From Candidatus Aenigmatarchaeota archaeon (GTDB taxonomy: Archaea; Aenigmatarchaeota; Aenigmatarchaeia; CG10238-14; SpSt-28): DNA of 64,000 bases. Made by a program: the position numbers and the translations under genes. This document shows, one piece after another, positions 10,478 through 41,357 of this stretch. The notes below the pieces were generated by a model. It searched no databases. It saw only the letters and a program-made list of their open reading frames with translations, and was not told the DNA's origin. The stretch's first letter is position 1. The number at the start of each line of letters is the position of its first letter. The stretch spans positions 44,159 through 108,158 of the forward strand of contig JAWAZZ010000001.1 in assembly GCA_038997305.1 (NCBI GenBank), written 5' to 3'.

Positions 10478-13505
<3,028 letters not shown>

Positions 13506-17798: not shown

Positions 17799-18476
17799 TT
17801 GCGTTTTCTTATATAATTTGACTTTGTTAATTCTTTTGGTATACATAATGAAGGTAATTATAGCTATTGCTATAATTAGAAGTATAAAAATTGAAATTGG
17901 CGGTATATAATATTCTTTGCAATCTGGATCTTCTGGGCAATTCGGTTCGCAATAATTATCTTTTAAATTTGGACAAATTTTTAATTTACAATCATTGCAA
18001 TTAATTTCATTTTCACCAAGCTTTTTTTCACATACTGAATTTTCATTACATATTTTTGTTTCTAGTATTTTTTGATCAAAATTGAACATTTCAATTTTAC
18101 TTAAATCTTTAAGATATGGAAATCTAAAATATTTTTCTAAACATTCGAATTCTACTTCTTCTCCCTTCATCTCTCCAGTAATAGGATCTATTATTTCTCT
18201 ATGAGTTTTAAAAGATTGTGAAAAATTATATTGCAGCAAAACAGAATTATTAGTAGAGTAGAGAAGTATGGTATAATTTCCAAAACCAATTTTATTTGAT
18301 TCTACATATTCTGGATTTTCAATTATTCCATAATCTATCAAAAAAACAGAATTATTTTTACATATATTTATTAGCAAATAAAATGTTTTATCACTTATTA
18401 TTTTTTCTTGGAAAGAAATTTCTAAGTAAATAGATATTATAAATAAAATTAATTGAGATAATAGTTTGATCTTCAT
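17793..18476 (-). CDS. secreted Cys-rich protein with C-terminal TM anchor
   Basis: Signal peptide MKIKLLSQLILFIISIYL, a CNDCKLKICPNLKDNYCEPNCPEDPDC cluster, and C-terminal TM FILLIIAIAIITFIMY. Confidence 0.5.
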   Translation of the reverse strand: MKIKLLSQLILFIISIYLEISFQEKIISDKTFYLLINICKNNSVFLIDYGIIENPEYVESNKIGFGNYTILLYSTNNSVLLQYNFSQSFKTHREIIDPITGEMKGEEVEFECLEKYFRFPYLKDLSKIEMFNFDQKILETKICNENSVCEKKLGENEINCNDCKLKICPNLKDNYCEPNCPEDPDCKEYYIPPISIFILLIIAIAIITFIMYTKRINKVKLYKKTQL

Positions 18477-18489
18477 AATATAAACTTAT

Positions 18490-19872: not shown

Positions 19873-20390
19873 GAAATTCTTAATATTAGGTAACCAATTT
19901 CCTCATCTGGCATAGGTATTGGCAAAACATAACTTTTTATCGTTTCTGAAGGTTTTAAATTATAACCATAGATTTCGTATAAGCTTTGGTTTTTATATAT
20001 AACTAGCTGCCATCTTTCTTTACCAATCATATTATCTAACATAGGATAAAGCAAATCTGAAGAATTATATGCTCCTAAAGCCATTCCATAATAAACAATT
20101 TTTCCTAAACCAAGATCTTCTTTAACTTTTTCTCTTTCACTTTCTTTCCATTTATTTAGAGTTAGTAGCGCATCTATCGATGTTTGTAAATAAGTTTTTT
20201 CTAATGTAGGTAATTTGGCTGTATAAACTGAAGCTAATGTTTTTAATGCTAAATCATCTATAACAGAAAATCTATGAAAATATTGGGATTTTGTTGAGAG
20301 TTGTGAAATGTAATACAATGTAATTACTATAACAATAGATGAAATTATTAAAATAATACCAATCCATATAATTTCACTTTGAAGTTTCAT
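19869..20390 (-). CDS. small protein with N-terminal TM helix (possible pilin-like or minor filament subunit)
   Basis: MKLQSEIIWIGIILIISSIVIVITLYY followed by a soluble ~140-aa domain. Co-oriented and overlapping the metzincin gene. Confidence 0.4.
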   Translation of the reverse strand: MKLQSEIIWIGIILIISSIVIVITLYYISQLSTKSQYFHRFSVIDDLALKTLASVYTAKLPTLEKTYLQTSIDALLTLNKWKESEREKVKEDLGLGKIVYYGMALGAYNSSDLLYPMLDNMIGKERWQLVIYKNQSLYEIYGYNLKPSETIKSYVLPIPMPDEEIGYLILRIS

Positions 20391-20419
20391 AAAATTAAAA
20401 TTAGTAAGGATATAATATT

Positions 20420-21748
20420 ATGTTAAAGTTACAAGTAGCACAATTTGCTTTTATAATATTTGCTATACTTTTTTTTCTTTTAAGTTTATATTTGTCATAT
20501 TTTCAATTTGGAAAAAGAATAGAAGAAATTAGCAATATAAGAACTATTGACATTTTTGAAAATTTGAAACATATTATAGATGGGTATGCGAAATTAGCAC
20601 TTTATTATGCTACAACTCAAAATTTTAGAGAAGAAAGTCATGTATGGATTCAAAATGGATTCAATCCGCTAGAGTTTGAACTTTTAAAAGAATGCAAAGA
20701 AAATTACACTACATTTTTCTTTAATCAATATCTTTCAAAATTTAATGTTAATTTACCAGTTAATATAGAAATTAAAAAAGTAAACAGATGCTTTTTTGAT
20801 TTAAAAGAAGAAAATGTTTTTAGTGGCTTGAACGATGAGGGAAATTTTTCTGTTTTTTGCAATTCTACTAACGTAAAAATTTATATAAATGAAACATTTC
20901 TTTTAGACTTTATTAATTCTTCTAACTTTATAACTAACAACAGGTATTGGTATCTTTATAGAAAGTTTTATGAATGGGCTAAAGAAAATGCAGATAAATT
21001 TGTGGCTTGTGTCTGTTCATTAGTAAAATCTTGTGCAACCTGTAATGCAATAGAAACATGTTATAAAGGCTTATTAGAAAGTTTGAGAAATAAGTTTAAA
21101 GATGATAAATATGTTGAATGTAATACAGATCCTACTCCTTGTTGCTATCAAGAATATGGCGATTTATGTAAATTACCAGATGTTTGTCAAGCATGGCAAA
21201 ATAGATGTTATGTTGCAGATAAGTTGGATTGTCCTATACTAGAAGAATCAGATGAGAAAAAAACACACGGCTATAAAAATCATAACGAAAACAACTACTT
21301 AATAGAATTTTCTAAAAATGTAGTTCTTTCTAATCCTCAAAATTATGTTACCGAATTTTATTGTGAAAGTTGTATATGGCAAGAGAATAGAATAGAAACT
21401 CATAGAAGATATTATTGTATAGATTATAAGTACTATGAATCAAGTCCTTCTGGTCCAAAACCAATAGAATTTACTGCGATAGTTTATGCTGGCTTAAAGA
21501 ACTATGTTTCTTGCATTTCTAAAGTCAAAAATAAGTGCGAAAGTATAACCACAGAATGTGAAAATTGTAATGATGTTGGAGGTAAAACTATATGTGATAA
21601 ATGTATTTTAAAAAACTGTGAAAAAAAGGGATGTAAAGAATGTTGGTTAGAGTGCGAAGAATGTGAAGTTAAGAAATTAAATGGAGAATTCGAAGTTATC
21701 CAGTGTAAAAAATGTAAGAATAAGCCAGATGATGTCTGTCCAAAATGA
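20420..21748 (+). CDS. membrane-anchored Cys-rich protein
   Basis: N-terminal TM with more than 35 Cys. C-terminal CENCNDVGGKTICDKCILKNCEKKGCKECWLECEECE cluster. Confidence 0.5.
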   Translation: MLKLQVAQFAFIIFAILFFLLSLYLSYFQFGKRIEEISNIRTIDIFENLKHIIDGYAKLALYYATTQNFREESHVWIQNGFNPLEFELLKECKENYTTFFFNQYLSKFNVNLPVNIEIKKVNRCFFDLKEENVFSGLNDEGNFSVFCNSTNVKIYINETFLLDFINSSNFITNNRYWYLYRKFYEWAKENADKFVACVCSLVKSCATCNAIETCYKGLLESLRNKFKDDKYVECNTDPTPCCYQEYGDLCKLPDVCQAWQNRCYVADKLDCPILEESDEKKTHGYKNHNENNYLIEFSKNVVLSNPQNYVTEFYCESCIWQENRIETHRRYYCIDYKYYESSPSGPKPIEFTAIVYAGLKNYVSCISKVKNKCESITTECENCNDVGGKTICDKCILKNCEKKGCKECWLECEECEVKKLNGEFEVIQCKKCKNKPDDVCPK

Positions 21749-22131
21749 AAACAATAGAAATAATATTAGTTTTAATTTTTTCAGTTTTTGGATTAGTACT
21801 TCTATTAAATTATATCTTTGGAATAAAATTTATTAAATTTGAAAGCGAAGAATTGACATTTCTAAAAAAAGAGGATTTTTTGTTTAAGATTAATGAGTTA
21901 GTTTCTAATTGTTTAAATAAAAAGACTAACAAAAGAGAAATTTGCTATTACGTCTATTACAAAGGTTTGCAAGATGTTTCTTCTGAAGAAATACTTTCAA
22001 AAATAATTCCTGAAAACAGAAATAAAATTAAAATAACTTTCGAAAAATTGATTAGCAACGAAAAAATTATAATAATTTATGTTCCTTTTGATTTGGTTGA
22101 AATTGTAAAATATTCTGAAATATCAAAATAA
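21745..22131 (+). CDS. small protein with N-terminal TM helix (pilin-like candidate)
   Basis: MKTIEIILVLIFSVFGLVLLLNYIFG plus a ~100-aa domain. Start overlaps the upstream stop (ATGA). Confidence 0.4.
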   Translation: MKTIEIILVLIFSVFGLVLLLNYIFGIKFIKFESEELTFLKKEDFLFKINELVSNCLNKKTNKREICYYVYYKGLQDVSSEEILSKIIPENRNKIKITFEKLISNEKIIIIYVPFDLVEIVKYSEISK

Positions 22132-22135
22132 TTTT

Positions 22136-24193
22136 ATGATAAGTGAACAAAAATTAGAACAATTAAAAAAAGAGTTTTCGACATATTATTTGGAATTTTA
22201 TTTAAAAGAAATAGAAAAATCTGCAAGAAGAAACTGGTATGAAAAACTTTGTGCAATTTCTTCAAAAATTTTACCTATAAAGGCATATCCTAAAAAACTT
22301 TCAGAAACCATAATTTTTTCTAATTTGAATGTTTTACCGAATGAAGTTGTAAGTTTAACAATACTTTCTTTTTTAATTCTTTTTGGAGTTTCTTTAATTC
22401 TATATTTCATTTTTACTGATTTGGGAATTTTTGTTTTTGCTTTGCCAATAGGCATTTCATACATTCTATATACTTATCCAGATTTTAAGGCAAAAGTAAA
22501 TAGAATTCAAACAAATTCAGAAGCAATAAAAATAATTACTTATCTTGTTTTATATTTAGAAACAATTCCAAATTTTGAAGGAGCAATAGATTTTGCAGCA
22601 AGAAGAGTTAAAGGAATTATTAGCGATGATATGAAAAAAATTTCTTGGGATATTAGAACTGGAAAGTTTTCGACATTAAAAGAAGCATTAGAGCATTATA
22701 TTCCAAAATGGTTAAAATGGAATGAAAATTTTGTGAGAGCTTTAATTTTGTTATCAAATATATCTTATGTAACTTCTAGTGAAGAAAGAAAAACATTATT
22801 AAGAAAAACATTAGATTTTATTTTGGCAAAAAACTTAGAGGAAACGAAAATTTATGTAGAAAAAGTCAGAGGTCCTATAACTATTTTGTTTCTTTTTGGA
22901 TTATTGATGCCATCTATAGGTTTAATAATGTTTCCTATGATTTCTGTATTTTTGCATTTTAGCGTAAAACCATCTTACATAATTTTTGGATATTTGGTTG
23001 TATTACCTCTTATGAACTATTACTTAATAACTAGAGTAATTTCTTTAAGACCAGGAGCTTTTCTTATAGTAGATATATCTAAGCATCCAAAATTGCCTCC
23101 AGAGAATTATTTTTATTATGGAAATGTTTTAATACCCATAATACCTCTATCAATTTTAGTTTTTGCATTGGTTAGTTTTTATGGAATAAATCATATAGGA
23201 AATTTTTATATCGAGTTTAATAGGCAGCTAGAAATAAATCCTAAAAAAGCAGAGGAAATGCTAAGAGCCGAAAATAATATTCAAAACTATGCTGGCTTAG
23301 CTGCTAGCTTTTCCATAACATTAGGTTTTGGTCTAGCCGCTTTTTTATACTTTTATCTAAACTCTTTTCAAAAGGTAAGAATTAGAAAAGAAGTTAAGGA
23401 TATTGAAGAAGATCTACCAAACTTGTTAATTACTAGTGGAAATTTCTTAGAAGCTGGGTATCCTTTTGAAAAAACGATAGAAAAAACTTTGGAGGAATAT
23501 GAAAGATTAGGAATGAAAGAAAAAGCTGGTTATAAATTTTATTCTTTGTTAAAGGAGAGAATTGTAAAGTTTGGAGAAAACATATATGAAGCAATCTTTG
23601 GAAGTAATGGTTTGATTTTTTATTTTCCATCCGTTTTATTGGAAGAAGTCTTTAGAATAATAACTGAAACTTCTAAAAAAAGTGTTAGAAGCGCTGGAAC
23701 TATTGCTAAAACAATTTCTAGATATTTAGAAAATATTTGGCAAACAGAATTTAGATTGAAAGAATTATTGGCAGATGTTAGAGGAAATTTAAAAATGCAA
23801 GCTCAATTTTTAATTCCTATAATTACAGGAGTTATTAGTGCTACTGGAATTTTTATAATAAGTTTATTATCTTTCTTAGCAGATTACTTAAGTAGGTTTG
23901 AAAAAAGTTTCGGAATAACTTCAGGAATTTCTGAGGTTATTAATGTTATGGTCGGAGATTTTAAAAGAGTAATACCAATGCCTTTATTACAAGCCGTTGT
24001 TGGATGTTATACTGTAATAGCAATAATATTGATGTCTTACTTGCTTAGTGGAGTTGAAAATGGATTTGATAGAGTTGCTAGAGATGATGAAATTTCTCAA
24101 AACCTAAAGTTTGGTTTGATAATATACTTTATAATAGGAATAGCATCTCTAATAGTTTTTGCAAATATAATATCTTCTTTACAATTAACATAA
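22136..24193 (+). CDS. polytopic membrane protein, TadC/FlaJ/GspF-like platform protein candidate
   Basis: 685 aa built as (helical cytoplasmic domain + ~3 TM) x2, resembling type II/IV secretion F-domain platform proteins. Flanked by small N-terminal-TM proteins. The assignment is by architecture only. Confidence 0.4.
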   Translation: MISEQKLEQLKKEFSTYYLEFYLKEIEKSARRNWYEKLCAISSKILPIKAYPKKLSETIIFSNLNVLPNEVVSLTILSFLILFGVSLILYFIFTDLGIFVFALPIGISYILYTYPDFKAKVNRIQTNSEAIKIITYLVLYLETIPNFEGAIDFAARRVKGIISDDMKKISWDIRTGKFSTLKEALEHYIPKWLKWNENFVRALILLSNISYVTSSEERKTLLRKTLDFILAKNLEETKIYVEKVRGPITILFLFGLLMPSIGLIMFPMISVFLHFSVKPSYIIFGYLVVLPLMNYYLITRVISLRPGAFLIVDISKHPKLPPENYFYYGNVLIPIIPLSILVFALVSFYGINHIGNFYIEFNRQLEINPKKAEEMLRAENNIQNYAGLAASFSITLGFGLAAFLYFYLNSFQKVRIRKEVKDIEEDLPNLLITSGNFLEAGYPFEKTIEKTLEEYERLGMKEKAGYKFYSLLKERIVKFGENIYEAIFGSNGLIFYFPSVLLEEVFRIITETSKKSVRSAGTIAKTISRYLENIWQTEFRLKELLADVRGNLKMQAQFLIPIITGVISATGIFIISLLSFLADYLSRFEKSFGITSGISEVINVMVGDFKRVIPMPLLQAVVGCYTVIAIILMSYLLSGVENGFDRVARDDEISQNLKFGLIIYFIIGIASLIVFANIISSLQLT

Positions 24194-24194
24194 T

Positions 24195-24554
24195 ATGCTA
24201 GCATTAGATACTGTTTTTTTGGTTTTGATTGGTATAGTAACTATAATAGCTGTTTCTAGTTTAATACTTGCTTATAAGGATAAAGTTATTGATTTTTTCT
24301 ACAGATTTTTTTCTAAAGAAGAAAATATAAACTATTGCTATACAACATACTACGAAGGAATCGAAGATGTTAGTAATTTATGTAGAATTTGCTTGAATTT
24401 GGGAAAGAAGTTAAAGAATAATTGCTATTGTTTTGTCATTTATTCTAACAATGTTTATTCTGATTTATGTGAAAATAGATGTTCTATTTCAGATAATAAA
24501 ATTTGGCTAATAAAGTATGATGTTTCTAAAAATAAAGTTTTTATTGAGTGCTAA
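24195..24554 (+). CDS. small protein with N-terminal TM helix and Cys-containing domain (pilin-like candidate)
   Basis: MLALDTVFLVLIGIVTIIAVSSLILAY followed by a ~90-aa domain with 6 Cys. Confidence 0.4.
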   Translation: MLALDTVFLVLIGIVTIIAVSSLILAYKDKVIDFFYRFFSKEENINYCYTTYYEGIEDVSNLCRICLNLGKKLKNNCYCFVIYSNNVYSDLCENRCSISDNKIWLIKYDVSKNKVFIEC

Positions 24555-25020
24555 CATTGTTAGAATATCTTATTAAATCAAAATATATACTATATTCGTT
24601 TATGCCGAAGAAATCTCTTTTAATGACTTTTGTCTCATCGTAATAAACTATAGGTATAGAAATATTACAAGAAAGTCTTTCACAATAAACTCTTTTGTCT
24701 TTCATCCATAAGCATAAGAAATTTCCTACTGTCAAATTCTTATTGTTAATGTATTCTTCTATTAAATCTCTAGAAATTTTTTCTATATCATCTATTGCGA
24801 ATATTGCAAAAAGATTTTGATTCACTATTAATTTCTCTTTTGTTTGAGTATATGGAAAACTCCAGCAAAGGTTTTGAACTTGATTATAAAATATTTTGAA
24901 TTGCTCTTCGACTTTTTTGTTGCTTTCGTTTTTAAAATGCAAAGATAATATATAAAAGATTGAAGATAAAAGTATTGAAAGAATTATTACTGCAAATATT
25001 ATTTGAAATGGGATTTCCAT
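24541..25020 (-). CDS. small protein with N-terminal TM helix (pilin-like candidate)
   Basis: MEIPFQIIFAVIILSILLSSIFYILSL plus a soluble domain. Confidence 0.45.
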   Translation of the reverse strand: MEIPFQIIFAVIILSILLSSIFYILSLHFKNESNKKVEEQFKIFYNQVQNLCWSFPYTQTKEKLIVNQNLFAIFAIDDIEKISRDLIEEYINNKNLTVGNFLCLWMKDKRVYCERLSCNISIPIVYYDETKVIKRDFFGINEYSIYFDLIRYSNNVSTQ

Positions 25021-25023
25021 AAT

Positions 25024-25458
25024 TTAATAATTGATTACAAGTACACTTTCTTTTTTGCAATTAAAGATTATTAGTGCATTACTTAAATAAGGATTAAAGA
25101 GATTGGCATCAACATAATACAGTTTTCCTTTATATTCTATAGGAAAAAATTTTGGTAAAGAGGCTTGGGATAAATCCCCATCTGTAACTATAAAATAGCA
25201 AGTAACATAACCATTTTTACAATTATAGTTTTCAACGCTTTCTCTTATGCAAGAATTTATTAATTCCAAAAAAACCTCGCTAGTTGGTTCTTTTTTAAAA
25301 TGTAGATACGTTACTTCTTTGAATTTTTTTGATTGGTTAATTTCACTAAAATATGACATTACAAAAGATTGTATAGCTAAATATATCATTAGAATTACTA
25401 TTGTTGCTATCATACTTATAAGCATTACAAAAACAACGTTTATGGCAAGTAATTTCAT
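25024..25458 (-). CDS. small protein with N-terminal TM helix (pilin-like candidate)
   Basis: MKLLAINVVFVMLISMIATIVILMIYLAI. The track start is TTG, so I moved it to the ATG. Confidence 0.45.
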   Translation of the reverse strand: MKLLAINVVFVMLISMIATIVILMIYLAIQSFVMSYFSEINQSKKFKEVTYLHFKKEPTSEVFLELINSCIRESVENYNCKNGYVTCYFIVTDGDLSQASLPKFFPIEYKGKLYYVDANLFNPYLSNALIIFNCKKESVLVINY

Positions 25459-25459
25459 A

Positions 25460-25993
25460 TTATGCAATAACTTCTATAGCATCTATATTGTGATTATATT
25501 TTATTATAACTATAGAATCTTTTGATATTTCATAATCTTTTACTTTCCAAACTACATCATCTCTATATCCACAATCAAAAGTTTTCATTTGTAAACTTTT
25601 ACAACCATCGTATTGTTTAATAAACATAGAAACATTTTCTGGAAAAATTTTTATATTTTCTTGCATGGGTGAGAAATCTATTTCATAGCAGGTATAATCT
25701 CTATCATAAACTTTATATCGTTGAATTGTTTGTATGCATTCGAAAAGGTATGAAGTAAATTTAGAGATTGCCTCTTCTTCATTATTAGCATAAAACTTAA
25801 TTCTTTCAGTTATTAAATTTTGAGATTTACAATATTCTGGAATAGTTTCTTTAGGAAAGATTTTGAGATAAACATTGCAATATAAATAATTTTGAATCCT
25901 TTCTCTTAAAGCTATTAAAATTGAAATTGAAATAACTATTGCAGCTATTATTATTATAAAAAACCAAGTTGTTTCTATTGCAATTAGCTTCAT
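25460..25993 (-). CDS. small protein with N-terminal TM helix (pilin-like candidate; MK|LIAIE resembles a prepilin cleavage motif with Glu at +5)
   Basis: [29 protein letters not shown] plus a ~140-aa domain. Confidence 0.45.
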
Positions 25994-26035
25994 AATGTAT
26001 TTAAATTTTTGAATAGAAATATTTTATCTAATTTT

Positions 26036-26401
26036 ATGGTTCAACCAAAATCTAAAAAGCCTAGAAAACAAAGAAAATTTTTGTATAATGCGCCTTTGCA
26101 TTTAAGAAGAAAAATGTTAGCTGCACATTTAAGTAAAGAATTAAGAGAGCAATTAAAAAGAAGAAGCTTGCCAGTTAGAAGTGGTGATGAAGTTAAAGTT
26201 ATGAGAGGAAAGTTTAGAGGCAAAGTAGGTAAAGTGGTAAAAGTAGATTATAAAAAGTATAGGATTTATGTTGAAGGTTGTACTGTAAAAACTGCTAGAG
26301 GAGAAGAAAAATTAGTTCCTATACATCCGTCTAAAGTAATGATAGTAAAATTAAACTTAGAGGATAAATGGAGAAAAGAAGCTTTAGGAATTAAAGCATA
26401 A
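26036..26401 (+). CDS. rpl24: 50S ribosomal protein L24 (uL24)
   Basis: [37 protein letters not shown] plus KOW motif [16 protein letters not shown]. Start set to the ATG at 26036; the track start at 26009 is TTG. Confidence 0.85.
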
Positions 26402-26425
26402 TTTTTATAATAATTTTTTTGCAAT
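26402..26425 (+). terminator. T-rich putative terminator downstream of rpl24
   Basis: tttttataataatttttttgc lies directly after the stop codon. Confidence 0.3.
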
Positions 26426-26509
26426 AGTTCGAGGTTTTATAATATTTTTACAGGTTTGTAGCTTATGATTGTTAAAAAATATATATTTGAAACTTAATAA
26501 TAATATTTT

Positions 26510-26881
26510 ATGTCATTGGTAAACAAAATAGGTAAAAAATTAAATTTATCTATATTTAAAAAAATTTCTGCGCTTTTTTTGATTTCTTTGCTATTGTTAT
26601 CGACATTTAAAATAATAATTGAGGACAAGTTAGTACCTAAAATAAAACTTTCTGACATTTCTTTATCTGATGACAACTTAAAAAGAAGTGGTATATTTTA
26701 TTGTAGTAATGGAAATCCTGTAACTTATAATGGTCAAAAAGGATTTTTAATGGTTATAAGTAACCCCAATGGATTAAACCTAAAGTTTAGAATTTATCTC
26801 TACGATGACGTCAATTATCAGAGCTACGATCCAGATCCTAAAGTCATATCTATGGAATATGGTATGGAAAGTCTTTTATAG
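26510..26881 (+). CDS. signal-peptide-bearing ORF; probably the 5' part of the downstream giant gene, separated by a single-base frameshift
   Basis: N-terminal KK-hydrophobic signal/anchor. The frame of 27004..30588 stays open upstream to 26842 with no ATG. One extra T in the TTTT run at 26874..26877 would fuse the two frames (...EYGMESLFIATGTNFGRE...). Confidence 0.4.
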   Translation: MSLVNKIGKKLNLSIFKKISALFLISLLLLSTFKIIIEDKLVPKIKLSDISLSDDNLKRSGIFYCSNGNPVTYNGQKGFLMVISNPNGLNLKFRIYLYDDVNYQSYDPDPKVISMEYGMESLL

Positions 26882-27003
26882 CTACAGGAACTAACTTCGG
26901 TAGAGAAATTATTACAGACGCGAGTTATGCAATAGTTTTTTTACCTTTACCATTTTCTGATCGTGCCGCCGATATTTCTTTAGTTTTCTCTAATGTTCAA
27001 GAT

Positions 27004-30000
27004 TTGGAAAAGAAAGGATTCCAATTTAACTCTATCAACGATTGTCAAAAATTAGCAGATTTATTATATACTTCATTTTTACTTTCTTATGCTGATCTTG
27101 GAAACAAGCTCTTATCAGATATTATAAATTTTCAATTAACATTATCTTCAGCAATTTTAGAGGGTATTTTAAGGTATGCACAAGGCACAGCAGTTTTAGC
27201 TGGCACACAAACTAACACTAAGATATATTTGTTTAACGATATACATCAAAACGCAAGAAATTTTATATATGAGGTTGTTGAAATCTTAAAGGAAAATGGT
27301 TTGGAACCTGGAAAAGATTTTTGGATTGTGGAGAAAAAATTCAATGATTACGAGTACTATACTTTAGAATTCTCTAGTAATGCAAAAAATAAGATTAATA
27401 AGAACATTAAAATAATATTTGCTGGAGATGTTTTTGATAAGAGAGAAGGAGATATGGAAATGGACGAATTTAAAGAAAAACTCGATAAAAGAGTGTTAGA
27501 AAAACTCGATGAAAATGCTAAAAGTAATTTTTTCAAAAATCTAAATGTTTTAGGGGAGAAGAGGGAGGATATAGGTAAGAATTCGAGGATACTTTCTCAC
27601 ACAATTTTATCGATAATGGACAGTTTAGAAGAATTGTTAGGTAGTGACAATGTAATAAGATTATTAGGTAATCACGATGTTTATCAATACTATATAGTAG
27701 ATAGTGAGAGAGTGAAGAAACTTACGGTAACTATGTCTCATTCTATTCCTTTCACGAGGGGAAAAGATCTTGTTGAATATTACTGGAATAAAGGAAGGTT
27801 GATTTATGTTTATTATGAAGATGGAATTGTAAATATTTATACTAATTCCCAATCAGGATTTTTAATTAAGGAATTTTTAGAAAGATTAGCTAAGAGTTTA
27901 GAAGGCAAAAATTTAAACGAATTGAGTGAAAATGAGTTAAAAAGAATAATCAAAGAGGTTAGTGAAGAATTTGATAGAAATGCAAAATTTATTGCAGGTG
28001 AAAATAGTGAAGTTGGTATTGTGAAATATACATATGAAAGATTTATGAATTTTGAGGATGATGTGAACAAACAAACTACTGATGTGAATGATAATTTGAA
28101 TAAACTAAGTGAAATTATAAAAAAGAAATTTGGGAATAGGTTTAAATTTGTAATAATAACTGGACATACACCAGTCAGTTCGTTGAATTATTATTATTCC
28201 TCTCCGAATATTGATTTATTTATAACTGATAATCCAGAAAAGAGAGCTTCCAGGTCTCTGATAATTTTCGATAAAGAGAAAATTAGTGTGCGTGTTATTC
28301 CTCATGGCGTGGATTATTTTGTTAGTATTCAGAAACCCAAATTAAATGTGGGTGGAGGAGGTTTATCTTCTGAGGATGTTAAAAAAATTAAGAATACTAA
28401 AAGTCAAATAGATGTTGCTAGAGAGATAAATGGGGAAATTTCTAAGGCCGAAGAAGAAGTTGAAAAGGCTAAAACTATATCTGAGAGATTAGATGTACTT
28501 AAAAGAGTGTTTTCGAGACTTAAGGATTTCTTTTCTAAAAAATCACAAGAAGTTGATAGAGTTTTTATTGATCCCGAACCTACGCAAACTAGACCTATAA
28601 AGCAAGCATTAGATGCAAGCATACAAAAGTCAGAGGAAGGATTACGGGCAGTACAAAGTGGTAATTTAGAAGAGGCAAATAAGAAGTTTGATGAGATAAG
28701 GAAAGAATTTAAACAACTAGCAGAAAATATATTAAAAAATGCAGGTGATAGAATTCAAGAAGTATATCAAAAACTTCAGGGAAATTCTCAAGCGGAACAA
28801 AGTTTAAATAAAAATATTGAGGAATCCATACGAAATCAGCAATCTGAATTATCAAAACAAGGAGAGAATATCCAAAGAACAGCTGCATCGACAGATGTTG
28901 CAAAGAGCGTAACAGAAAGTACAGAAAAACTCGCTAGTTCTCAACTTTCTCAACAGGGGAGAAGTCTTTTACAAAAATTAAAAACATCTGTGAGCGCTTT
29001 TAAAACTTTTTCAACTACAATTAATAATTTAGCATCTAAAATCTCACCCCTTTTAATATTCGTACCTATGATAGAAATAGGCAGAAATTTAGAACTATAT
29101 GAAATCCCATATGGAGAAGAAGTTTCTTTGGCATTAACTCTTGGTGGTATAATTGGATTGACTTTGCAAACCATATTGGCAATTAAAATTGCATTGGAGG
29201 CAGGAATTCGCGTCGCATTAGCTGTTGTTATTACTGGACCTTTTGGTTGGTTAAGTCTACTTGTTTTAGCCGCAATAATAGTTGCTATTGGTGCATTTAT
29301 GTGTTTTATCTATGTTACTCAAAGAGGTGGCGGTGATTTTGGACAGTGTTTACTGTATGGTATATCTTTCGGTACTGCAAAATATTGCGACCTATACGCG
29401 GCAAAATACTATTTTAGAGATATTAATGATTTTGACAAAAAAACTGAAAAACAAAAACCATCTGAATATACTTACTTTACAGTTTTGTATCCAGACTATA
29501 GGGAAATAAAATTATATGCTGAAGGAATACCTAGGATAGGTACTGAAAAATGTCCTGCAGATAATTATCTTGGTCCTATAAAGGTTTATGAAGGTCATAA
29601 TTACTTTATCAGAATAAAGCATTTGGGTAGTAATATGGAAAGATATGATTTAACAAAGTTCATAGTAGAAAAGGATGGAAGTGGGAGAAGCGAGGGGACA
29701 TTTTGTTTAACTTCTAAATCAAGTTGTAGCAAAGATGCAACGGACTTTCCATTCGAAGTTGGAAAACAATATTTAGTCATAATAGATGAAAGAGGATGGT
29801 ATATTGTAGAACCCTTAGGTAGCGGAATTAAGAAGAGCGTTCCTGTTGGTGTTCTATACATTTATGAAAACAAAAATGCATGTAGTAATCTTGGCGGAAA
29901 ATGTGTAGATGTAAGTAAGGCACAAGATCCTAAGCAAATAATATATCACGGCGTTTGTAAGGCTGGTGAGATATGCATTAAAGAATGTAAGAGCGATTCA

Positions 30001-30588
30001 GATTGTAGTAGTGGATATTTCTGTGATGCTGGAATATGTAAATCGCGTATAGGAGAAGAAGTTAAAAAATGCAATTCGCAAGGAAAGGTTTATATTGGGC
30101 ACGAATCAGAAAACAACAAATGTTGTGAGAGAGAAAAAGTAAATGTTATGATATGTGAAGGTAGTGATTGTCCTACTTATTCTTTTAGAGCAGAAGAATG
30201 GATAACTCATAAAGATACTATTTTAGATTATTTGACAGGAAAGATAGATTATTCGCAATTCAGCAACTTAGTTAGTGCTGATGTAAGACTAAAGCTACTA
30301 CAATTACAATCTACAAAGAACATAATGTGCTGTGGAGATTGGAAAAAGTGTGTGTATAATGGAAAATGCTATAATGAAAATAGTGTAGAAAAAATTAATC
30401 AAAAAGATTTTGTTTGTAAATTAGGCAAATGGATACAAATAGACTCTTGTAAGATTAATAGGGCATACGTACAGAATAATAATTTAATTTTAGAAGTTTC
30501 TTTGGGTTGTGGCGGAATAATTTCTGGTAATCAAGTTAATGTAGGAATAGAATGTAAGAGGATTAATAAAGATGGCCAGTGTGTATAA
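27004..30588 (+). CDS. giant multidomain membrane protein: calcineurin-like metallophosphoesterase domain + ~300-aa coiled coil + TM hairpins + C-terminal Cys-rich domain
   Basis: Phosphoesterase motifs in canonical order: DIH, GDVFDKREG (GDxxDR), GNHD, GHTP. A long heptad-like Glu/Lys/Gln region follows. Hydrophobic block LTLGGIIGLTLQTILAIKIALEAGIRVALAVVITGPFGWLSLLVLAAIIVAIGAFMCFIYV. The C-terminal ~450 aa hold more than 45 Cys. The annotated start is TTG; see the frameshift note on the previous feature. Confidence 0.6.
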   Translation: MEKKGFQFNSINDCQKLADLLYTSFLLSYADLGNKLLSDIINFQLTLSSAILEGILRYAQGTAVLAGTQTNTKIYLFNDIHQNARNFIYEVVEILKENGLEPGKDFWIVEKKFNDYEYYTLEFSSNAKNKINKNIKIIFAGDVFDKREGDMEMDEFKEKLDKRVLEKLDENAKSNFFKNLNVLGEKREDIGKNSRILSHTILSIMDSLEELLGSDNVIRLLGNHDVYQYYIVDSERVKKLTVTMSHSIPFTRGKDLVEYYWNKGRLIYVYYEDGIVNIYTNSQSGFLIKEFLERLAKSLEGKNLNELSENELKRIIKEVSEEFDRNAKFIAGENSEVGIVKYTYERFMNFEDDVNKQTTDVNDNLNKLSEIIKKKFGNRFKFVIITGHTPVSSLNYYYSSPNIDLFITDNPEKRASRSLIIFDKEKISVRVIPHGVDYFVSIQKPKLNVGGGGLSSEDVKKIKNTKSQIDVAREINGEISKAEEEVEKAKTISERLDVLKRVFSRLKDFFSKKSQEVDRVFIDPEPTQTRPIKQALDASIQKSEEGLRAVQSGNLEEANKKFDEIRKEFKQLAENILKNAGDRIQEVYQKLQGNSQAEQSLNKNIEESIRNQQSELSKQGENIQRTAASTDVAKSVTESTEKLASSQLSQQGRSLLQKLKTSVSAFKTFSTTINNLASKISPLLIFVPMIEIGRNLELYEIPYGEEVSLALTLGGIIGLTLQTILAIKIALEAGIRVALAVVITGPFGWLSLLVLAAIIVAIGAFMCFIYVTQRGGGDFGQCLLYGISFGTAKYCDLYAAKYYFRDINDFDKKTEKQKPSEYTYFTVLYPDYREIKLYAEGIPRIGTEKCPADNYLGPIKVYEGHNYFIRIKHLGSNMERYDLTKFIVEKDGSGRSEGTFCLTSKSSCSKDATDFPFEVGKQYLVIIDERGWYIVEPLGSGIKKSVPVGVLYIYENKNACSNLGGKCVDVSKAQDPKQIIYHGVCKAGEICIKECKSDSDCSSGYFCDAGICKSRIGEEVKKCNSQGKVYIGHESENNKCCEREKVNVMICEGSDCPTYSFRAEEWITHKDTILDYLTGKIDYSQFSNLVSADVRLKLLQLQSTKNIMCCGDWKKCVYNGKCYNENSVEKINQKDFVCKLGKWIQIDSCKINRAYVQNNNLILEVSLGCGGIISGNQVNVGIECKRINKDGQCV

Positions 30589-31651
30589 CATTAGAAAAAT
30601 CAATATTGAAAAAGGTGGAAAAAACATAGCTTTAATTATTTTTATGTTTTTACTTTCCTTTACTTCTTTTGGTTTATCCCAGCAAAATATGTTAAAATGT
30701 ACTAATAATTATCTATTGGTTTCTTGTTTAGTAGATAATTGCTATTCTGGAGTGGTTATTGTCAATAATTCTTATGAAGTTTACACTATATCAATAGATA
30801 TAAATTCAAACTCATTTAATATTCAACCAAAAGGCAGTGAAATATTTTTTACGGTTATTTGTCAAGCTCCACAAAAAGTAGAAGAGTATAAGTATAAAAT
30901 AAATAATGTTATACTTTCGGATACATTCCAAAATGTTAATAACCAACTTATAGTTGGGAGAGGATGCTATAGCATAAGAACAGAAGTTAGTGGAAGCACT
31001 AGCTTTCTATATCTAGAAAAATATAGATATTCTGAAGGTGGATGTGAAGAAAGTCAAAAAGTTCAAACATTAAAAATTCCTTTGAAAAGCAAGGATGTGA
31101 TAATTCACGTAAATTGTAAATGCATAGAAAACAAAGGACTCTTATTGTCTATTGGAGATTTTGCTAGTGTAAACGAAGTAACATTAGCATCTTCAGATGA
31201 AGTAGTAATTTATTTGAAAAAAGGATGGAACATGATATCTAATCCGTCTGATAAGCCAATAACTTTAGAAGATTTTAGGAAAAGCGGATGTAATATTAGG
31301 TCTATTTGGAAATATGAAAACAAGAAATGGCAAAGACCTACTGAAATATCAAACGATGCAAAAGGTTATTTTGTTTATGCAACTAACGATTGTGTATTAA
31401 GAGTTAAAAAACCATCAAAATCGAATGTAATATTAACTAACGAACTTTCAATTACTTTACAAAAAGGATGGAATTTAATTAGAGGTATTGATGGGTTAAC
31501 TTGTGAAGATTTAGAGAGACTAGGATGTAAGTTATCATCAAAATCAAAAAACAAATGTTTTTGGATATATCAGAATAAGAAATGGGTAAGAACAAATGTG
31601 ACTGAGATGCTATATGGGTATTGGGTATATTGTAGAGAAATTGTTAAGTAA
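30572..31651 (+). CDS. secreted protein with N-terminal Cys-containing domain and two C-terminal ~62-aa aromatic GWN repeats
   Basis: Signal anchor ALIIFMFLLSFTSFGLS. C-terminal repeats LKKGWNMISNP...WKYENKKWQRP...KGYFVYATNDC and LQKGWNLIRG...WIYQNKKWVR...YGYWVYCRE. Confidence 0.6.
   Translation: MASVYNIRKINIEKGGKNIALIIFMFLLSFTSFGLSQQNMLKCTNNYLLVSCLVDNCYSGVVIVNNSYEVYTISIDINSNSFNIQPKGSEIFFTVICQAPQKVEEYKYKINNVILSDTFQNVNNQLIVGRGCYSIRTEVSGSTSFLYLEKYRYSEGGCEESQKVQTLKIPLKSKDVIIHVNCKCIENKGLLLSIGDFASVNEVTLASSDEVVIYLKKGWNMISNPSDKPITLEDFRKSGCNIRSIWKYENKKWQRPTEISNDAKGYFVYATNDCVLRVKKPSKSNVILTNELSITLQKGWNLIRGIDGLTCEDLERLGCKLSSKSKNKCFWIYQNKKWVRTNVTEMLYGYWVYCREIVK
31211..31640 (+). repeat. tandem pair of ~62-aa GWN(L)-W.YENGKW-GKGYW.Y modules (coding)
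   Basis: Protein-level repeat visible in the translation of 30572..31651. Confidence 0.6.
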
Positions 31652-31688
31652 TATGGATAAATATTTATTGTTAAACAAAATAATAATT

Positions 31689-34600
31689 ATGAATGGAAAA
31701 TTCTTAAATGTAATACTATTTTTAATTTTCTTTTTGAGTTTTGGTATAGTTTATTCTGAAAATTATGTTTTAAGTCTTAAAAAGGGATGGAACTTGATTT
31801 CGATACCCTTAGCTCCATCTAATATAGAGTCTGTAAAATGTGATATATCTTCTATTTGGTCATATGAAAACGGTAAATGGAAAAAATTGAGTAATATTAA
31901 TCAGTTAGTTCCTGGTAAAGGTTATTGGATATATGTTAGAAGTGCTACATGCGATATCGTTATCTATGGAGATAGAATAAATTATAATCCAATAGAAAAA
32001 TTAAGTAAAGGATGGAATTTAGTTGGTATTGGTTCTAATGAAATATATGTTAAAGATTTAAAAAATGTTTGTAAAAATATTACTAGAATTTGGAGTTATG
32101 AAAATGGCAGATGGATAAAATTAAATGATGATGATAAATTAATTCCTGGTAAAGGATATTGGATATATAGTAGAGATGAATGTGATTTAGGAAGAAGCAA
32201 GTTTGTAGGTTCTTCTAGTTGTCAATGTTATGATAATCTTAAAATAAATCCGGATAAAACTACATTTTCTCCTGGAGAAACTATAAATTTCGAAAGTGTT
32301 TGTGGTGATCAAGGAAATCTTATAACAATAGTTTTGAAAGATCCTAGTGGTAGTCAAAAAGCATCTGCATATTCTACTTGTCCTAGTCCAACTAGTAAAG
32401 CAAGCGGTAGTTATACATTTAAATCTACTGATCCTGCAGGAACTTGGAAATTAATAATGGATGTGAGTGGAGTTACTTGTGAGCATTGTGAAAAAGAAAT
32501 AACATTGCAAGGAACACAACAACAATGTAGTGTATCAGTATCTAATATAAATATTCAACAAACAAATACACCTACTTGTGGTCAATCAGCAACACTTTCA
32601 GTATCTATATCTGGTACAGCAACAAATTGCCAATCTTTAAAAGCAGAAATTTATGAAGATCAAACTTTATTAAAAACAATATCATGTAGCATTTCGAATA
32701 ATAATTTACAATGTTCTGACACATTAACTTTAACAGTCTCTTCTAATAATCAAGAAGCAGACTTTGATATAGTAATTAAAGATAGTAATAACAATGAAAA
32801 GGCTAGAAGTCCTAAGAGAATTACATTACAATGTCAATCACAACAACAATGTCAAGTAACTTTAAATTCGTTATCTCTAAATCCATCATCCACGAACCAA
32901 TGTGGTCAATTAATTCCATTAACTATAACTGTTAGTTATTCAGCTAGTGGAAATTGTCAAAACAAATATATTACAGTTTATGATCATGATAATAATGTTT
33001 TAGGTTATATTCCAATAGATACTTCTAAAACAAGTGGCTCATTAAATTTAAATACTTACAACGTTCCTTCAAAAAGTGATAAATATTTAATTTGGGCCTT
33101 AGCAGAAGGTTCCTCACAACAAGTTTCTGCATATTTAGATGTTCAATGTCAATCACAACAACAATGTCAAGTAACTCTTAATTCATTATCTCTAAGTGAA
33201 TCAACAGCACAATGCAATCAACAAATTTCATCATTAACAGCAACTGTTAGTTATTCAGCTAGTGGAAATTGTCAAAATCAAAACATAATAGTTTATAAAC
33301 CAGATGGAAGTGTTTTGTGCAATATTCCAATAGATACTTCCAAAAATAGCAATTCATGTTCAGCTAGTTATACTGCTCCATCGCAAAGTGGTATACATAC
33401 ATTCAAAGCTGTTTATGGAACTCAAGAAAAAACAGCAAGTTTAAATGTTCAATGTCAAAGTCAAGAAACTAAAATAGAAGTTTCTATAACTGCAGATAAA
33501 ACAACTTCTTATGTTAGAGACAAAATTAAAATAAGAGCAACTGCAAGATTCACCAATCTAAAAGAAACAGGAACATATGAGTTGTGGATATGTAGAGAAG
33601 GGTTATCATATTGTTTAGCATCTGCTGCAAAGGTTTGCACAGATTCAAATTGTCTTAGAGAATTAGAGCAAAACGGTCTAACAAAAGAATATGAAGCTAC
33701 TTCAGATTGTAGCGGAAGTTATAAATATTATGCAAAAGTTTATTTAGGAACTGATAAAGAACTTGCCAAGAGTAATCCAATAGAAGTTAATTTTAAGCTT
33801 CATGAAGGTTTAAAGATAGATGAATTAAAAGTTGAACCTCCAAAAGCAGATTCAGAGCAAAAAATAATAATAACTTTAAACCCAGATACATATAGAATAC
33901 TAAATGAATATTATTGTGAAGGATGTAAAGGTTTTAATACAGGTGATTATTTTGTATCAGTACCAGAATATTATGATCCTAATGGAAATAAAGTACAACT
34001 TTTGATACCAGCTTGTAACGAAAATGATATAAGACAAAACAATGGTAAGTGTGTAATAGATAAGTATTTTAGTGGTAGTCCACTTAAACTGTTTAATAAA
34101 CCAGGAACATATAAAGTAAGGGCAGTTTTAATGAGAGAGTGTGTAAGAGATGCTACTACTACAGAAAAGTTGACCGAAGGTTGGTTTACTGTAACAATTT
34201 CTTCACAAAATTGTGTTGTTAACATCTCTGAGGTTAAAGTTGAAAAAGTAGATTCTAATATACCAAATTGTGGCCAAACTATAAATTTGAAATTCACGGT
34301 TAATGGAAAGCATACTTCTTGTTCTAGTAGCGATATCGCTGCAATAATTTACGAAGGTTCTAGTGAGATTGGAAAATTACAATGTAATGTAAATAATGAT
34401 GGTACATTTAGATGCGAAGGACAACTTCAATATAAGATAATAGTTTCAGGAACCAAAACATTCAAAGCAAAAGTTCTTGATAAAGAAAAAGAGAGTAATC
34501 AAATAGATTTATCTTGTCAACAACAGCAACAACAATGTACATCTGGTCAAACAAAATGCGAAAATAACAAATTATACGAATGTGTTAATGGACAATGGCA

Positions 34601-35339
34601 AGACAAAACTCCTTCGTGTCCACAGGGTCAACAGTTTGTATGTGTAGATCAAACGCGTGGAGAATGTAGACAACAGCAACAACAATGTCAATTAAAATCT
34701 GTAAATATAGAAAGTGTTAGACAATTAACAAAATGTGATGGGACAAAAGTTAGATACGAAGTAACTGTTTTTACAGATTATGAAAATTGCGAACAAATGC
34801 CTAAGGTAACTCTAGAATATGGAAGAAAAGATCAATTAAGACCTTCTAAAACACAACAACCAAAATCTGTTAGTAATGATGGAAAGAGAGCTATTTTTGA
34901 GGTAGAAATTAGTGGAGTTAGACATGGAACGCAGGTTTTCTTTAGAGCAACTGCTGAAATTTCTGGTCAACAGAAATCTACTGTCGATGAAGAAAGAACT
35001 GTAAATTGTTATGTAGAAGAAGATACATATAAATGTATTGTCGATAACAACAGGGTAAAAATAGTAGCTTCTAACAACCAAGTTATATGGGAAAAAGAAA
35101 ATACACAGACCATTTCATACTATTGTAAAAAAGAGAGTATAAGTGCTAGAAAAGGTATAACATCTAGTGATGGTGATTTTGAAGATTTCTTGAATGCTTT
35201 AGTTGGAGCAAGAAAAGTTTTTACTTGCAGTTTTTCAAACGGAAGGATAGAATGTAATATTGGTAATTTAAATGTGAGAGGTAGCACTGTTTGTATTCTA
35301 GTAGACAATAATAATGCTATATGTAAAACAGTTAGTTAA
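31689..35339 (+). CDS. giant secreted Cys-rich modular surface protein (2 GWN repeats, four ~104-aa Ig-like tandem repeats, Gln-runs, Cys6 knot repeat)
   Basis: Signal peptide MNGKFLNVILFLIFFLSFGIVYS with start at ATG 31689 (31653 is also possible). It contains the modules listed separately below. Confidence 0.65.
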   Translation: MNGKFLNVILFLIFFLSFGIVYSENYVLSLKKGWNLISIPLAPSNIESVKCDISSIWSYENGKWKKLSNINQLVPGKGYWIYVRSATCDIVIYGDRINYNPIEKLSKGWNLVGIGSNEIYVKDLKNVCKNITRIWSYENGRWIKLNDDDKLIPGKGYWIYSRDECDLGRSKFVGSSSCQCYDNLKINPDKTTFSPGETINFESVCGDQGNLITIVLKDPSGSQKASAYSTCPSPTSKASGSYTFKSTDPAGTWKLIMDVSGVTCEHCEKEITLQGTQQQCSVSVSNINIQQTNTPTCGQSATLSVSISGTATNCQSLKAEIYEDQTLLKTISCSISNNNLQCSDTLTLTVSSNNQEADFDIVIKDSNNNEKARSPKRITLQCQSQQQCQVTLNSLSLNPSSTNQCGQLIPLTITVSYSASGNCQNKYITVYDHDNNVLGYIPIDTSKTSGSLNLNTYNVPSKSDKYLIWALAEGSSQQVSAYLDVQCQSQQQCQVTLNSLSLSESTAQCNQQISSLTATVSYSASGNCQNQNIIVYKPDGSVLCNIPIDTSKNSNSCSASYTAPSQSGIHTFKAVYGTQEKTASLNVQCQSQETKIEVSITADKTTSYVRDKIKIRATARFTNLKETGTYELWICREGLSYCLASAAKVCTDSNCLRELEQNGLTKEYEATSDCSGSYKYYAKVYLGTDKELAKSNPIEVNFKLHEGLKIDELKVEPPKADSEQKIIITLNPDTYRILNEYYCEGCKGFNTGDYFVSVPEYYDPNGNKVQLLIPACNENDIRQNNGKCVIDKYFSGSPLKLFNKPGTYKVRAVLMRECVRDATTTEKLTEGWFTVTISSQNCVVNISEVKVEKVDSNIPNCGQTINLKFTVNGKHTSCSSSDIAAIIYEGSSEIGKLQCNVNNDGTFRCEGQLQYKIIVSGTKTFKAKVLDKEKESNQIDLSCQQQQQQCTSGQTKCENNKLYECVNGQWQDKTPSCPQGQQFVCVDQTRGECRQQQQQCQLKSVNIESVRQLTKCDGTKVRYEVTVFTDYENCEQMPKVTLEYGRKDQLRPSKTQQPKSVSNDGKRAIFEVEISGVRHGTQVFFRATAEISGQQKSTVDEERTVNCYVEEDTYKCIVDNNRVKIVASNNQVIWEKENTQTISYYCKKESISARKGITSSDGDFEDFLNALVGARKVFTCSFSNGRIECNIGNLNVRGSTVCILVDNNNAICKTVS
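31775..32195 (+). repeat. tandem pair of ~62-aa GWNL-W.YENGKW-GKGYW.Y modules (coding); about 95% nt-identical to 41530..41862 over ~335 nt
   Basis: LKKGWNLISIPLAP...IWSYENGKWKKL...GKGYWIYVRSATCDI and LSKGWNLVGIG...IWSYENGRWIKL...GKGYWIYSRDECDL. The nucleotide comparison was done by eye. Confidence 0.7.
32510..33760 (+). repeat. four tandem ~310-nt (~104-aa) coding repeats, each beginning QCQSQQQCQV / QQQCSV
   Basis: Repeat starts near 32516, 32829, 33144 and 33449, with conserved ends and variable middles. The TVSYSASGNCQN core recurs. Confidence 0.6.
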
Positions 35340-35379
35340 TCAAAAAATATATATGAGGTATAAGATATTATAATTTATT

Positions 35380-36087
35380 ATGTTGAACATCAGAGGCTTA
35401 AAAGGTTTTACTGCGATAGAAATTGTCTTTCTAATTTTTATTTTAATAGTTGTCGTGTTAGTTGTAATTCAAATGATTACTAGATATGTTAATCCAGGAA
35501 AAATTAATCCTTATATTGAAAATATAGAAGAATTAGCGAAAAAGGATTATATGAGGCAATATTGTGATAATTTGTGCAATTCTATTAAAACTGCTACTAG
35601 TGAAAGAGAAAGATTGTTTGCAATGGCAAGATGGTGTATGGAAAATATAAAAGACAGAGGAAAAGATTATATAGATATAATTGAAGATGGAGTAAAAGGA
35701 TTTTATGTTATTGGTGGTTTACCTTATTGTGAAGCTGGCACATATTGTTTTCATTTCTTCTCTTGCGATGTAGGAATAACTTTGGATTTAAAGGAATGTA
35801 GGAGAATTCTTTGCGAATATTATACTCAACAATTGGGAGATACAAAAAAGGCTAGCGAGGCTATAGTAAATATCATAAACTGGGGAAAATGTAATGTCAA
35901 CAAAGAACAATTATCTGGTAAACCATTGCTTTACTCAAGCGCTAGATGGTGGTATGATAAATATTTTAACATAACAGATGAAAATGGCGAACTCAAAGAT
36001 TTTTGTAGCGTTCTCATAGCTGGTGGAGATATAGAGGGAATAGTTAGCGAAGGTGAAGAGGAAGGCTCTCCTCCAATGCCATCATAA
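35380..36087 (+). CDS. type IV pilin-like protein (class III signal peptide) with Cys-rich globular domain
   Basis: MLNIRGLKG|FTAIEIVFLIFILIVVVLVVIQ has the canonical prepilin cleavage motif (Gly-1, Phe+1, Glu+5, then a ~20-aa hydrophobic helix). A ~190-aa domain with about 10 Cys follows. Confidence 0.55.
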   Translation: MLNIRGLKGFTAIEIVFLIFILIVVVLVVIQMITRYVNPGKINPYIENIEELAKKDYMRQYCDNLCNSIKTATSERERLFAMARWCMENIKDRGKDYIDIIEDGVKGFYVIGGLPYCEAGTYCFHFFSCDVGITLDLKECRRILCEYYTQQLGDTKKASEAIVNIINWGKCNVNKEQLSGKPLLYSSARWWYDKYFNITDENGELKDFCSVLIAGGDIEGIVSEGEEEGSPPMPS

Positions 36088-36154
36088 TCATAGAAGAAAA
36101 AATGAAACCTTTTAATGAATTTATTTATTATTTTCTAAATATAATTATTTTAAA

Positions 36155-38380: not shown

Positions 38381-38417
38381 ATAAAATCGAATTTAATATA
38401 CACACAAAATAATATTT

Positions 38418-41322: not shown

Positions 41323-41357
41323 AATTTTAATAATCGGGTTTTTATAAATTATTATTT

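Follow-up and report, generated by a model that had tools for sequence, protein, structure and literature searches.

The two adjacent reading frames annotated as QW197_00405 and QW197_00410 in a Candidatus Aenigmatarchaeota MAG together make up one gene (26510..30588, + strand), which has a 1357-aa product in intact relatives and is interrupted in the window, that is, in the whole 64,000-nucleotide stretch of DNA analysed here. It is probable that the interrupted copy is a recent, real and strain-specific loss-of-function allele of a fast-evolving and dispensable envelope-protein gene. A preliminary description of this DNA had proposed a single frameshift-broken gene and had offered three possible causes; the best fit among the three is a recent pseudogenising mutation. 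The actual lesion consists of five extra bases, TATGG (26858..26862, + strand), in tandem with 26863-26867.

The upstream frame, ORF1 (26510..26881, + strand; 123 aa), encodes residues 1-118 of the true protein, followed by five out-of-frame residues (MESLL) and a premature stop codon that is a product of the frameshift (TAG, 26879..26881, + strand). The downstream frame is open from 26842 to 30588 (+ strand) and encodes true residues 117-1357 from position 26863 onward. Its first possible start is a TTG at 27004, which corresponds to residue 164 of the true protein, and its first ATG is at 27454. As the preliminary description had noted, this frame continues open upstream of 27004 for 54 codons, back to 26842, and ORF1 terminates within the open region; ATG, GTG and TTG are all absent between the preceding stop codon (26839-41) and the TTG. 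Both frames are open in the interval 26842..26878 (+ strand), where any frame-restoring change has to be located. With a GC content of 29.3%, stop codons make up about 8% of random codons (calculated from base composition), and an open run of 54 codons would therefore occur by chance about 1% of the time. Among the 56 other ORFs of at least 120 aa that are fully contained in the window, start-less extensions reach at most 24 codons. The junction extension is thus the only one of its size in 64 kb, which indicates that the assembly is not full of frameshifts.

Comparison with close relatives establishes that the two frames belong together. ORF1 and the downstream ORF fall into the same 90% identity cluster as the intact 1357-aa products P0001, P0005 and P0007, and align with them end to end at 98-99% identity; they are colinear with one unbroken orthologue, as is characteristic of a frameshift-disrupted gene. 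Five same-species assemblies (99.1-99.8% DNA identity) have one unbroken coding frame across the junction, and the complete 1357-codon gene is present in three of these five near-identical assemblies. The junction peptide in the five is MEYGKSFIATG. The intact relatives begin at the equivalent of 26510, and not at the equivalent of 27004 as the preliminary description had allowed for, and they read through the junction as ...VISMEYGKSFIATG....

The same comparison locates the lesion. The sequence at 26851..26869 (+ strand) has the arrangement TATGGAA-TATGG-TATGGAA, compared with TATGGAA-TATGGAA in the intact relatives; the duplicated form in the window is TATGGTATGG, and the undoubled form has a single TATGG. 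These five bases are the only junction difference from the intact relatives, and no other gap occurs in the 14,144 bases over which the window aligns with assembly L001. The length of the insertion is not a multiple of three and its position is inside 26842..26878, both of which are properties of a frameshift-disrupted gene. None of the four other haplotypes has the duplication, not even the closest, and the duplicated form is therefore the derived state. Tandem Repeats Finder (TRF) detected no repeat array at the site, and TATGG has simply gone from one copy to two beside one imperfect copy.

The preliminary description had placed the lesion elsewhere, as a single T missing from the TTTT at 26874..26877 (+ strand). 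A slip in this tract is ruled out, since intact alleles have exactly the same tract: every assembly reads T4 here, whether its gene is intact or broken, and none of the six related assemblies shows a change. Adding one T there does produce a single ORF, as had been claimed; however, the product has 1359 aa rather than about 1370. Because the site was misplaced, the repaired protein contains GMESLF in place of the true GKSF and is two residues too long.

The intact gene is predicted to encode a lineage-restricted membrane or envelope protein that begins with an N-terminal signal anchor, continues with a domain some 800 residues long in which metallophosphoesterase-like motifs are combined with a probable coiled coil, and ends with a transmembrane cluster followed by a Cys-rich C-terminal domain. 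The signal anchor, which had been assigned to ORF1 in the preliminary description, is indeed supplied by that frame: a K-rich start is followed by a hydrophobic stretch, with a Kyte-Doolittle peak of 2.41 found within residues 17-42 and a helix at about residues 19-37 (26564..26620, + strand). Further downstream, motifs resembling those of the calcineurin-like metallophosphoesterases (PF00149) are tentatively assigned to 27235..28173 (+ strand). DxH, GDxxDR, GNH[DE] and GH are all present, in the canonical order of that family (D-x-H, G-D-x-x-D-x-R, G-N-H-D, G-H), as NDIH (27235-46, residue 241), GDVFDKR (27424-44, residue 304), GNHD (27667-78, residue 385) and TGHTP (28159-73, residue 549). 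This is a motif match; in contrast to the PF00149 family, the motifs are separated by large insertions, and the Pfam score is below the gathering threshold (17.7 bits versus a cut-off of 21.5, E 0.005). Members of the family fold as a four-layer alpha/beta sandwich; AlphaFold2, run on residues 216-640 as a single sequence without an alignment, gave an unusable model (pLDDT 36.7). Residues 620-845 (28372..29049, + strand) are charged and Cys-free, with weak matches to helical proteins, and probably form a coiled coil. Two or three transmembrane helices are predicted for residues 868-937 (29116..29325, + strand). The C-terminal domain (29335..30585, + strand) has 27 Cys in 417 residues, with weak knottin-like and Cys-repeat matches, and is presumed to be extracellular. 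The protein would probably be located at the surface.

The protein appears to be lineage-restricted, in that relatives are detectable only inside its own cluster. A word-indexed search of 5.8 billion proteins matched that cluster alone, and an exhaustive HMMER search of 1.84 billion representatives with residues 117-995 recovered the cluster together with a spurious 30-residue repeat match (P0011). A search with the C-terminal domain gave no matches; this negative is weak, because even the protein's own cluster was missed. There was no homologue among the GTDB species representatives or the viral contigs searched, no match to the junction pattern in a scan of JGI metagenomes, and no paralogue within the 64-kb window. 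Pfam and NCBIfam gave sub-threshold matches only, and PDB sequence searches gave no relevant match to solved structures. In the literature, our search found no paper that connects Aenigmatarchaeota with frameshifts and none that names the run or assembly accessions.

The duplication shifts the frame at codons 117-118, and translation from the ATG at 26510 runs into TAG 26879-81 after five further codons. The 1239 codons that remain have no signal anchor and no ATG, GTG or TTG before the TTG at 27004, and for these reasons the allele is most likely null, or at best gives a mislocalised truncated product. Such a product may be made from TTG 27004, and low-level ribosomal -1 slippage may occur at CUU UUA UAG, with a hairpin downstream.

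The duplication is probably one of several independent inactivating mutations in an island of rapidly evolving genes for secreted proteins. The closest haplotype, found in the identical sequences L002 and L003, differs from the window by four substitutions in 5768 bases. This sister population lacks the TATGG duplication, and carries instead a T6 in place of the T7 tract at codons 22-24, within the signal anchor (26574..26580, + strand), so that the frame from the ATG reaches a TGA after 23 codons. With the T7 to T6 change the gene has a second frameshift allele, independent of the first. The sister population also has lesions in two neighbouring secreted-protein genes: a nonsense substitution, W82* (TGG to TAG at 31858), in the next large gene, and an A7 to A8 change at 39587 that splits a 744-aa gene. 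Within the gene itself, all of the polymorphic sites are nonsynonymous (13/13), against a neutral expectation of 78.6% (P = 0.044), and the nonsynonymous excess is also found relative to neighbouring genes (Fisher P = 4.6e-4). The former value is marginally above neutral and is compatible with either positive or relaxed selection. The loss may thus reflect relaxed constraint on a dispensable protein, or it may have been favoured, for example if the protein is a target in virus or host interactions; it is the recurrence of knockouts together with the nonsynonymous excess that would suggest selection for loss.

A different interpretation of the same variation is that the gene is a contingency locus, in which repeats near the 5′ end (A7, T7 and TATGG(AA)) expand and contract through slipped-strand mispairing and so switch a surface protein reversibly ON and OFF within populations. 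We regard this as unlikely, and we are just as doubtful that the + strand island of large secreted Cys-rich proteins as a whole (26510 to ~43775) is a contingency region. Tract length does vary among populations (T7 or T6, one or two copies of TATGG), and two very close populations have independent frameshift alleles within the first 118 codons, one of them at the T7 homopolymer. In addition, the gene has five tracts of at least 7 bases, three of which are within its first 430 bases, and the duplication falls in a pre-existing repeat, giving a two-copy tandem that slippage could revert. There is also a known analogue in the 5′ poly(A) tract of inlA in Listeria monocytogenes, which is in frame as A7 and frameshifted as A6 (Orsi, Bowen and Wiedmann 2010, PMC2831843); the mutation rate of the tract is about 1000-fold above that of an average point mutation, and the frameshift, which leaves a very short product, has arisen at least twice independently among close strains (PMC2831843). 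The sister T7 to T6 change matches this example, in that both are one-base changes in a 7-base homopolymer near the 5′ end of a surface-protein gene. The window's own lesion, however, is a 5-base duplication rather than a homopolymer change, the organism belongs to the DPANN archaea and is uncultured, and its protein is unrelated to internalin.

In tandem repeats with units of four or five bases, one added unit shifts the frame as it does in the window. The CTGG x3 site of E. coli lacI, a frameshift hot spot, has at least three pre-existing copies. The CTCTT repeats of the Neisseria opa genes number 7-28 pre-existing copies and are located in the signal-peptide region, which codes for a surface protein's N-terminal export signal. 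Both of these loci have documented high switching rates, whereas in the window a single copy of a 5-mer has been doubled, with the adjoining imperfect copy helping at most, and does not form a long hypermutable tract. Nor are the homopolymers unusual: tracts of at least 7 bases are common at 29% GC (78 in 64 kb), making T7 and A7 unremarkable, and the T7 of the sister allele is of borderline length for hypermutability. Each assembly contains a single allele. Finally, W82* in the sister population could be neither made nor reverted by repeats, and therefore points to a general loss of function. If the contingency interpretation were nevertheless true, genes of the island would be silenced repeatedly, and perhaps reversibly, via T7, A7 and TATGG under pressure from viruses or host cells; repeat-mediated ON/OFF variation of envelope proteins would then have its first natural example in DPANN archaea.

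Still less likely is that the gene is intact in the organism and that the additional TATGG stems from the assembler or from misread bases within a local repeat, a cause that the preliminary description had also put forward. The lesion does fall within a short direct repeat, and MAG consensus sequences may hold errors. However, Logan contig L006, from a separate assembly of run SRR27215044, is identical to the window over 5768 bases (100%), duplication included, which argues against an assembly error; the NCBI MAG and the Logan contig are independent assemblies but probably derive from the same reads, and hence are not independent samples. The 19-base repeat context is also much shorter than assembler k-mers, short-read errors rarely give rise to 5-base duplications, and there is no second frameshift-like feature in the 64 kb.

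Programmed recoding, in which the split layout would be the normal route to the full-length protein via a -1 shift in the overlap, is very improbable: a UUA-decoding tRNA slipping -1 onto UUU (26875-77) beside the TAG would restore the frame, and a stable hairpin is predicted to start about 4 nt downstream of that stop (26885..26959, + strand; -23 kcal/mol, z -3.04), but the hairpin is identical in all assemblies, including intact alleles where no shift is needed, all other haplotypes have one continuous frame across the junction, and direct reading of 26842..26878 reveals no X XXY YYZ heptamer. The intact alleles and the missing heptamer exclude programmed frameshifting as an evolved feature, leaving accidental leakiness at most.

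We therefore return to a recent, strain-specific loss of function as the preferred explanation. Losses of this kind have precedents in strain-specific pseudogenes and in archaea that lose envelope and receptor genes under viral pressure, such as virus-resistant Sulfolobus mutants with disruptions in surface or pilus genes. The resemblance is that frameshifts and a nonsense codon have accumulated in secreted or envelope genes of close populations; unlike the Sulfolobus mutants, the present case has no virus, host or phenotype linked to it. By itself the window allele is an ordinary strain-specific knockout, to which the sister population's separate break of the same gene adds slight interest.

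In the annotation, QW197_00405 and QW197_00410 should become one entry marked as a single disrupted gene, whose true product has 1357 aa with GKSF at the junction. The biological case is modest and implies no new mechanism. What it offers is an example of natural populations of one uncultured Aenigmatarchaeota species, only a few substitutions per 6 kb apart, in which a single orphan gene for an envelope protein has been lost independently, and the gene provides a concrete locus for following allele dynamics in metagenomic time series. Because the knockouts are recurrent and amino-acid change has occurred without silent change, we suggest that the island is a candidate interface with viruses or host cells in an episymbiotic archaeon.

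The frame of the large ORF at 27004..30588 (forward strand) is open back to 26842, through 54 codons that include no ATG or GTG, as the preliminary description had it, and no TTG either. Also as described there, the short ORF that precedes it, 26510..26881, bears an N-terminal signal or anchor (MSLVNKIGKKLNLSIFKKISALFLISLLLLSTFKIII, lysine-rich and then a hydrophobic helix whose Kyte-Doolittle score peaks at 2.4) and ends inside this open zone, at TAG 26879-81, both frames being open at once across 26842..26878. At the base composition of the window (29.3% GC), stops make up about 8% of random codons, which gives 54 open codons a chance of about 1%, and the longest start-less extension among the remaining ORFs that are 120 aa or longer and lie fully inside the window is 24 codons. 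The extension is real and beyond chance.

In a search of 5.8 billion proteins, the repaired protein matched one cluster, whose representative, an intact protein of 1357 aa (P0001), is 99% identical to it over 100% coverage. Both ORFs of the window belong to the cluster (MEM5827959.1 and MEM5827960.1; locus tags QW197_00405 and QW197_00410; 'Candidatus Aenigmatarchaeota archaeon' MAG, on a 120,962-base contig), as do five longer proteins, 1331-1357 aa in length; two further MAGs and three Logan assemblies supply these, and each of the five has VISMEYGKSFIATGTNFG at the junction. A frameshift thus splits one gene, as had been proposed, but its site and kind are different. The Logan contig L001 aligns to 17737..31880 at 99.36% DNA identity with a sole gap of five bases, and positions 26851-26869 of the window read TATGGAA-TATGG-TATGGAA, where every relative has TATGGAA-TATGGAA. 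Because the relatives differ there by TATGG only and the T4 tract at 26874-77 is identical in all assemblies, the lesion, as read from these alignments, is a 5-base tandem duplication at codons 117-118, and the slip in the T4 tract that had been suggested is ruled out. Adding a T to that tract does join the ORFs, into 1359 aa rather than about 1370, but the junction becomes GMESLF where the true protein has GKSF. The duplication shifts the frame such that translation from 26510 would end after 123 codons, and the remainder of the gene has no start before TTG 27004 and no signal anchor. A recent, genuine loss-of-function allele is the best explanation, and we regard it as likely.

Five haplotypes, taken as populations of the same species, were resolved among the assemblies. 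Haplotype A (the window and L006) has the TATGG duplication; the gene is intact in haplotypes C (L004, GCA_038997915.1), D (L005, SRR17794511) and E (L001, SRR17794517). Haplotype B (L002, GCA_044343115.1, and L003, SRR27170998), the closest to A with 4 substitutions in 5768 bases, is without the duplication and has T6 in place of T7 at 26574-26580, in signal-anchor codons 22-24. Its ATG frame stops at TGA after 23 codons, and therefore gene callers resort to TTG, with products of 1334 or 1331 aa. Both B assemblies also carry a TGG to TAG change (W82*) at 31858 (codon 31857-31859), in the conserved SIWSYENGKW motif of an Ig-like-repeat secreted protein of 1241 aa, encoded by the neighbouring gene 31614..35339; TGG is found in the window and in the other populations. 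Finally, the A7 of the window at 39587-39593 is A8 in haplotype B (L002 15782; a single assembly covers the site), which splits a 744-aa cysteine-rich secreted protein (38418..40652) into 393 and 364 aa. The most parsimonious history has an intact ancestor and separate hits in A and B.

Thirteen nucleotide positions of the gene, spread over 12 codons (codons 109-907), vary between haplotypes, and codon 411 occurs in three forms (I, D and N). Every one of the 13 changes is nonsynonymous, with no synonymous change at all (78.6% nonsynonymous sites by Nei-Gojobori; P = 0.044 for 13 of 13), and hence purifying selection on the protein is not visible among these strains. Neighbouring genes have the reverse pattern, e.g., 100 synonymous and 17 nonsynonymous changes in 22136..24193 (Fisher P = 4.6e-4 for gene against neighbours, divergent tract left out). 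That tract, 22793-24554, has dense, mostly synonymous haplotype differences amid near-identity elsewhere, and looks like a recombination import. A 1357-codon open frame at 29% GC presumably needed selection until recently.

Of the alternative scenarios, switching of the gene by repeat length (phase variation) is improbable. The T7/T6 allele of haplotype B resembles the inlA A7/A6 tract (PMC2831843); however, the duplication in the window lies outside any hypermutable tract, tracts of the T7/A7 type are abundant throughout the genome, and neither heterogeneity nor reversion is seen, with one allele per assembly. Still less probable is a sequencing or assembly artefact, because the Logan contig L006 (run SRR27215044) matches the window at 100% over 5768 bases, duplication included, and no second frameshift-like split was found among window ORFs of at least 120 aa checked for start-less extensions; the two assemblers agree, though probably from the same reads. 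Programmed -1 frameshifting is excluded as an evolved feature by the single frame across the junction in relatives and is very remote in general, there being no slippery heptamer, and the stable predicted RNA hairpin at 26885-26959 (-23 kcal/mol, z -3.04), in coding sequence just past the premature stop, being identical in all haplotypes, intact alleles included.

The protein has a signal anchor at about residues 19-37, followed by NDIH, GDVFDKR, GNHD and TGHTP (residues 241, 304, 385 and 549), an order typical of calcineurin-like metallophosphoesterases, although the Pfam score of 17.7 bits is below the cut-off of 21.5. Residues 620-845 are charged, cysteine-free and a probable coiled coil, two or three transmembrane helices are predicted at 868-937, and 27 cysteines lie in 941-1357; the structure model was unusable (pLDDT 36.7). 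Searches detected no relatives of the protein beyond its own cluster, nor did the window yield a paralogue; when the C-terminal domain (29332-30585) was the query, a word-indexed protein search gave zero matches and missed even that cluster, a weak negative. The gene heads a plus-strand run (30572..43775) encoding signal-peptide-bearing, cysteine-rich proteins, and small proteins with pilin-like hydrophobic N-termini are encoded upstream. Because of these sequence features and this neighbourhood, the protein probably sits in the envelope.

Several secreted proteins of the run share a module, KKGWNLISLP...C.I.SIWSYENGKWKKL...GKGYW.YV (31680-31990, 36250-36650, 41430-41860 and the C-terminal part of 30572..31651), with about 95% DNA identity between paralogues, e.g., at 41523-41860; every Logan contig breaks off at 31904, for which this repeated module is the probable reason. 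In 31614..35339, overlapping BLAST segments indicate that L002 lacks one 315-base (105-aa) repeat unit present in the window within 32829-33345, an in-frame copy-number variation in the Ig-like repeats. The 235-aa protein of 35380..36087 begins MLNIRGLKGFTAIEIVFLIF, resembling a type IV prepilin (class III) signal; together with four small ORFs with hydrophobic N-termini (24195..25993) and the 685-aa polytopic membrane protein upstream of them (22136..24193), it may belong to a locus for a pilus-like surface structure, and none of these proteins has a Pfam or NCBIfam match. The window also holds a complete archaeal 23S rRNA gene (10479-13504, plus strand), in which the listed ORFs (11268..13125) are spurious, and no 16S or 5S gene. 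Homopolymers drop off sharply past 7 across the window (50 A7 vs 1 A8; 23 T7 vs 3 T8), which suggests that longer runs are selected against in this genome of 29% GC.

We regard the split as an ordinary strain-specific gene disruption whose pattern of recurrence is mildly interesting. Recurrent inactivation in A and B, arising independently and including a nonsense substitution for which repeats offer no explanation, points to an envelope protein that is dispensable or counter-selected and not to a dedicated switch.
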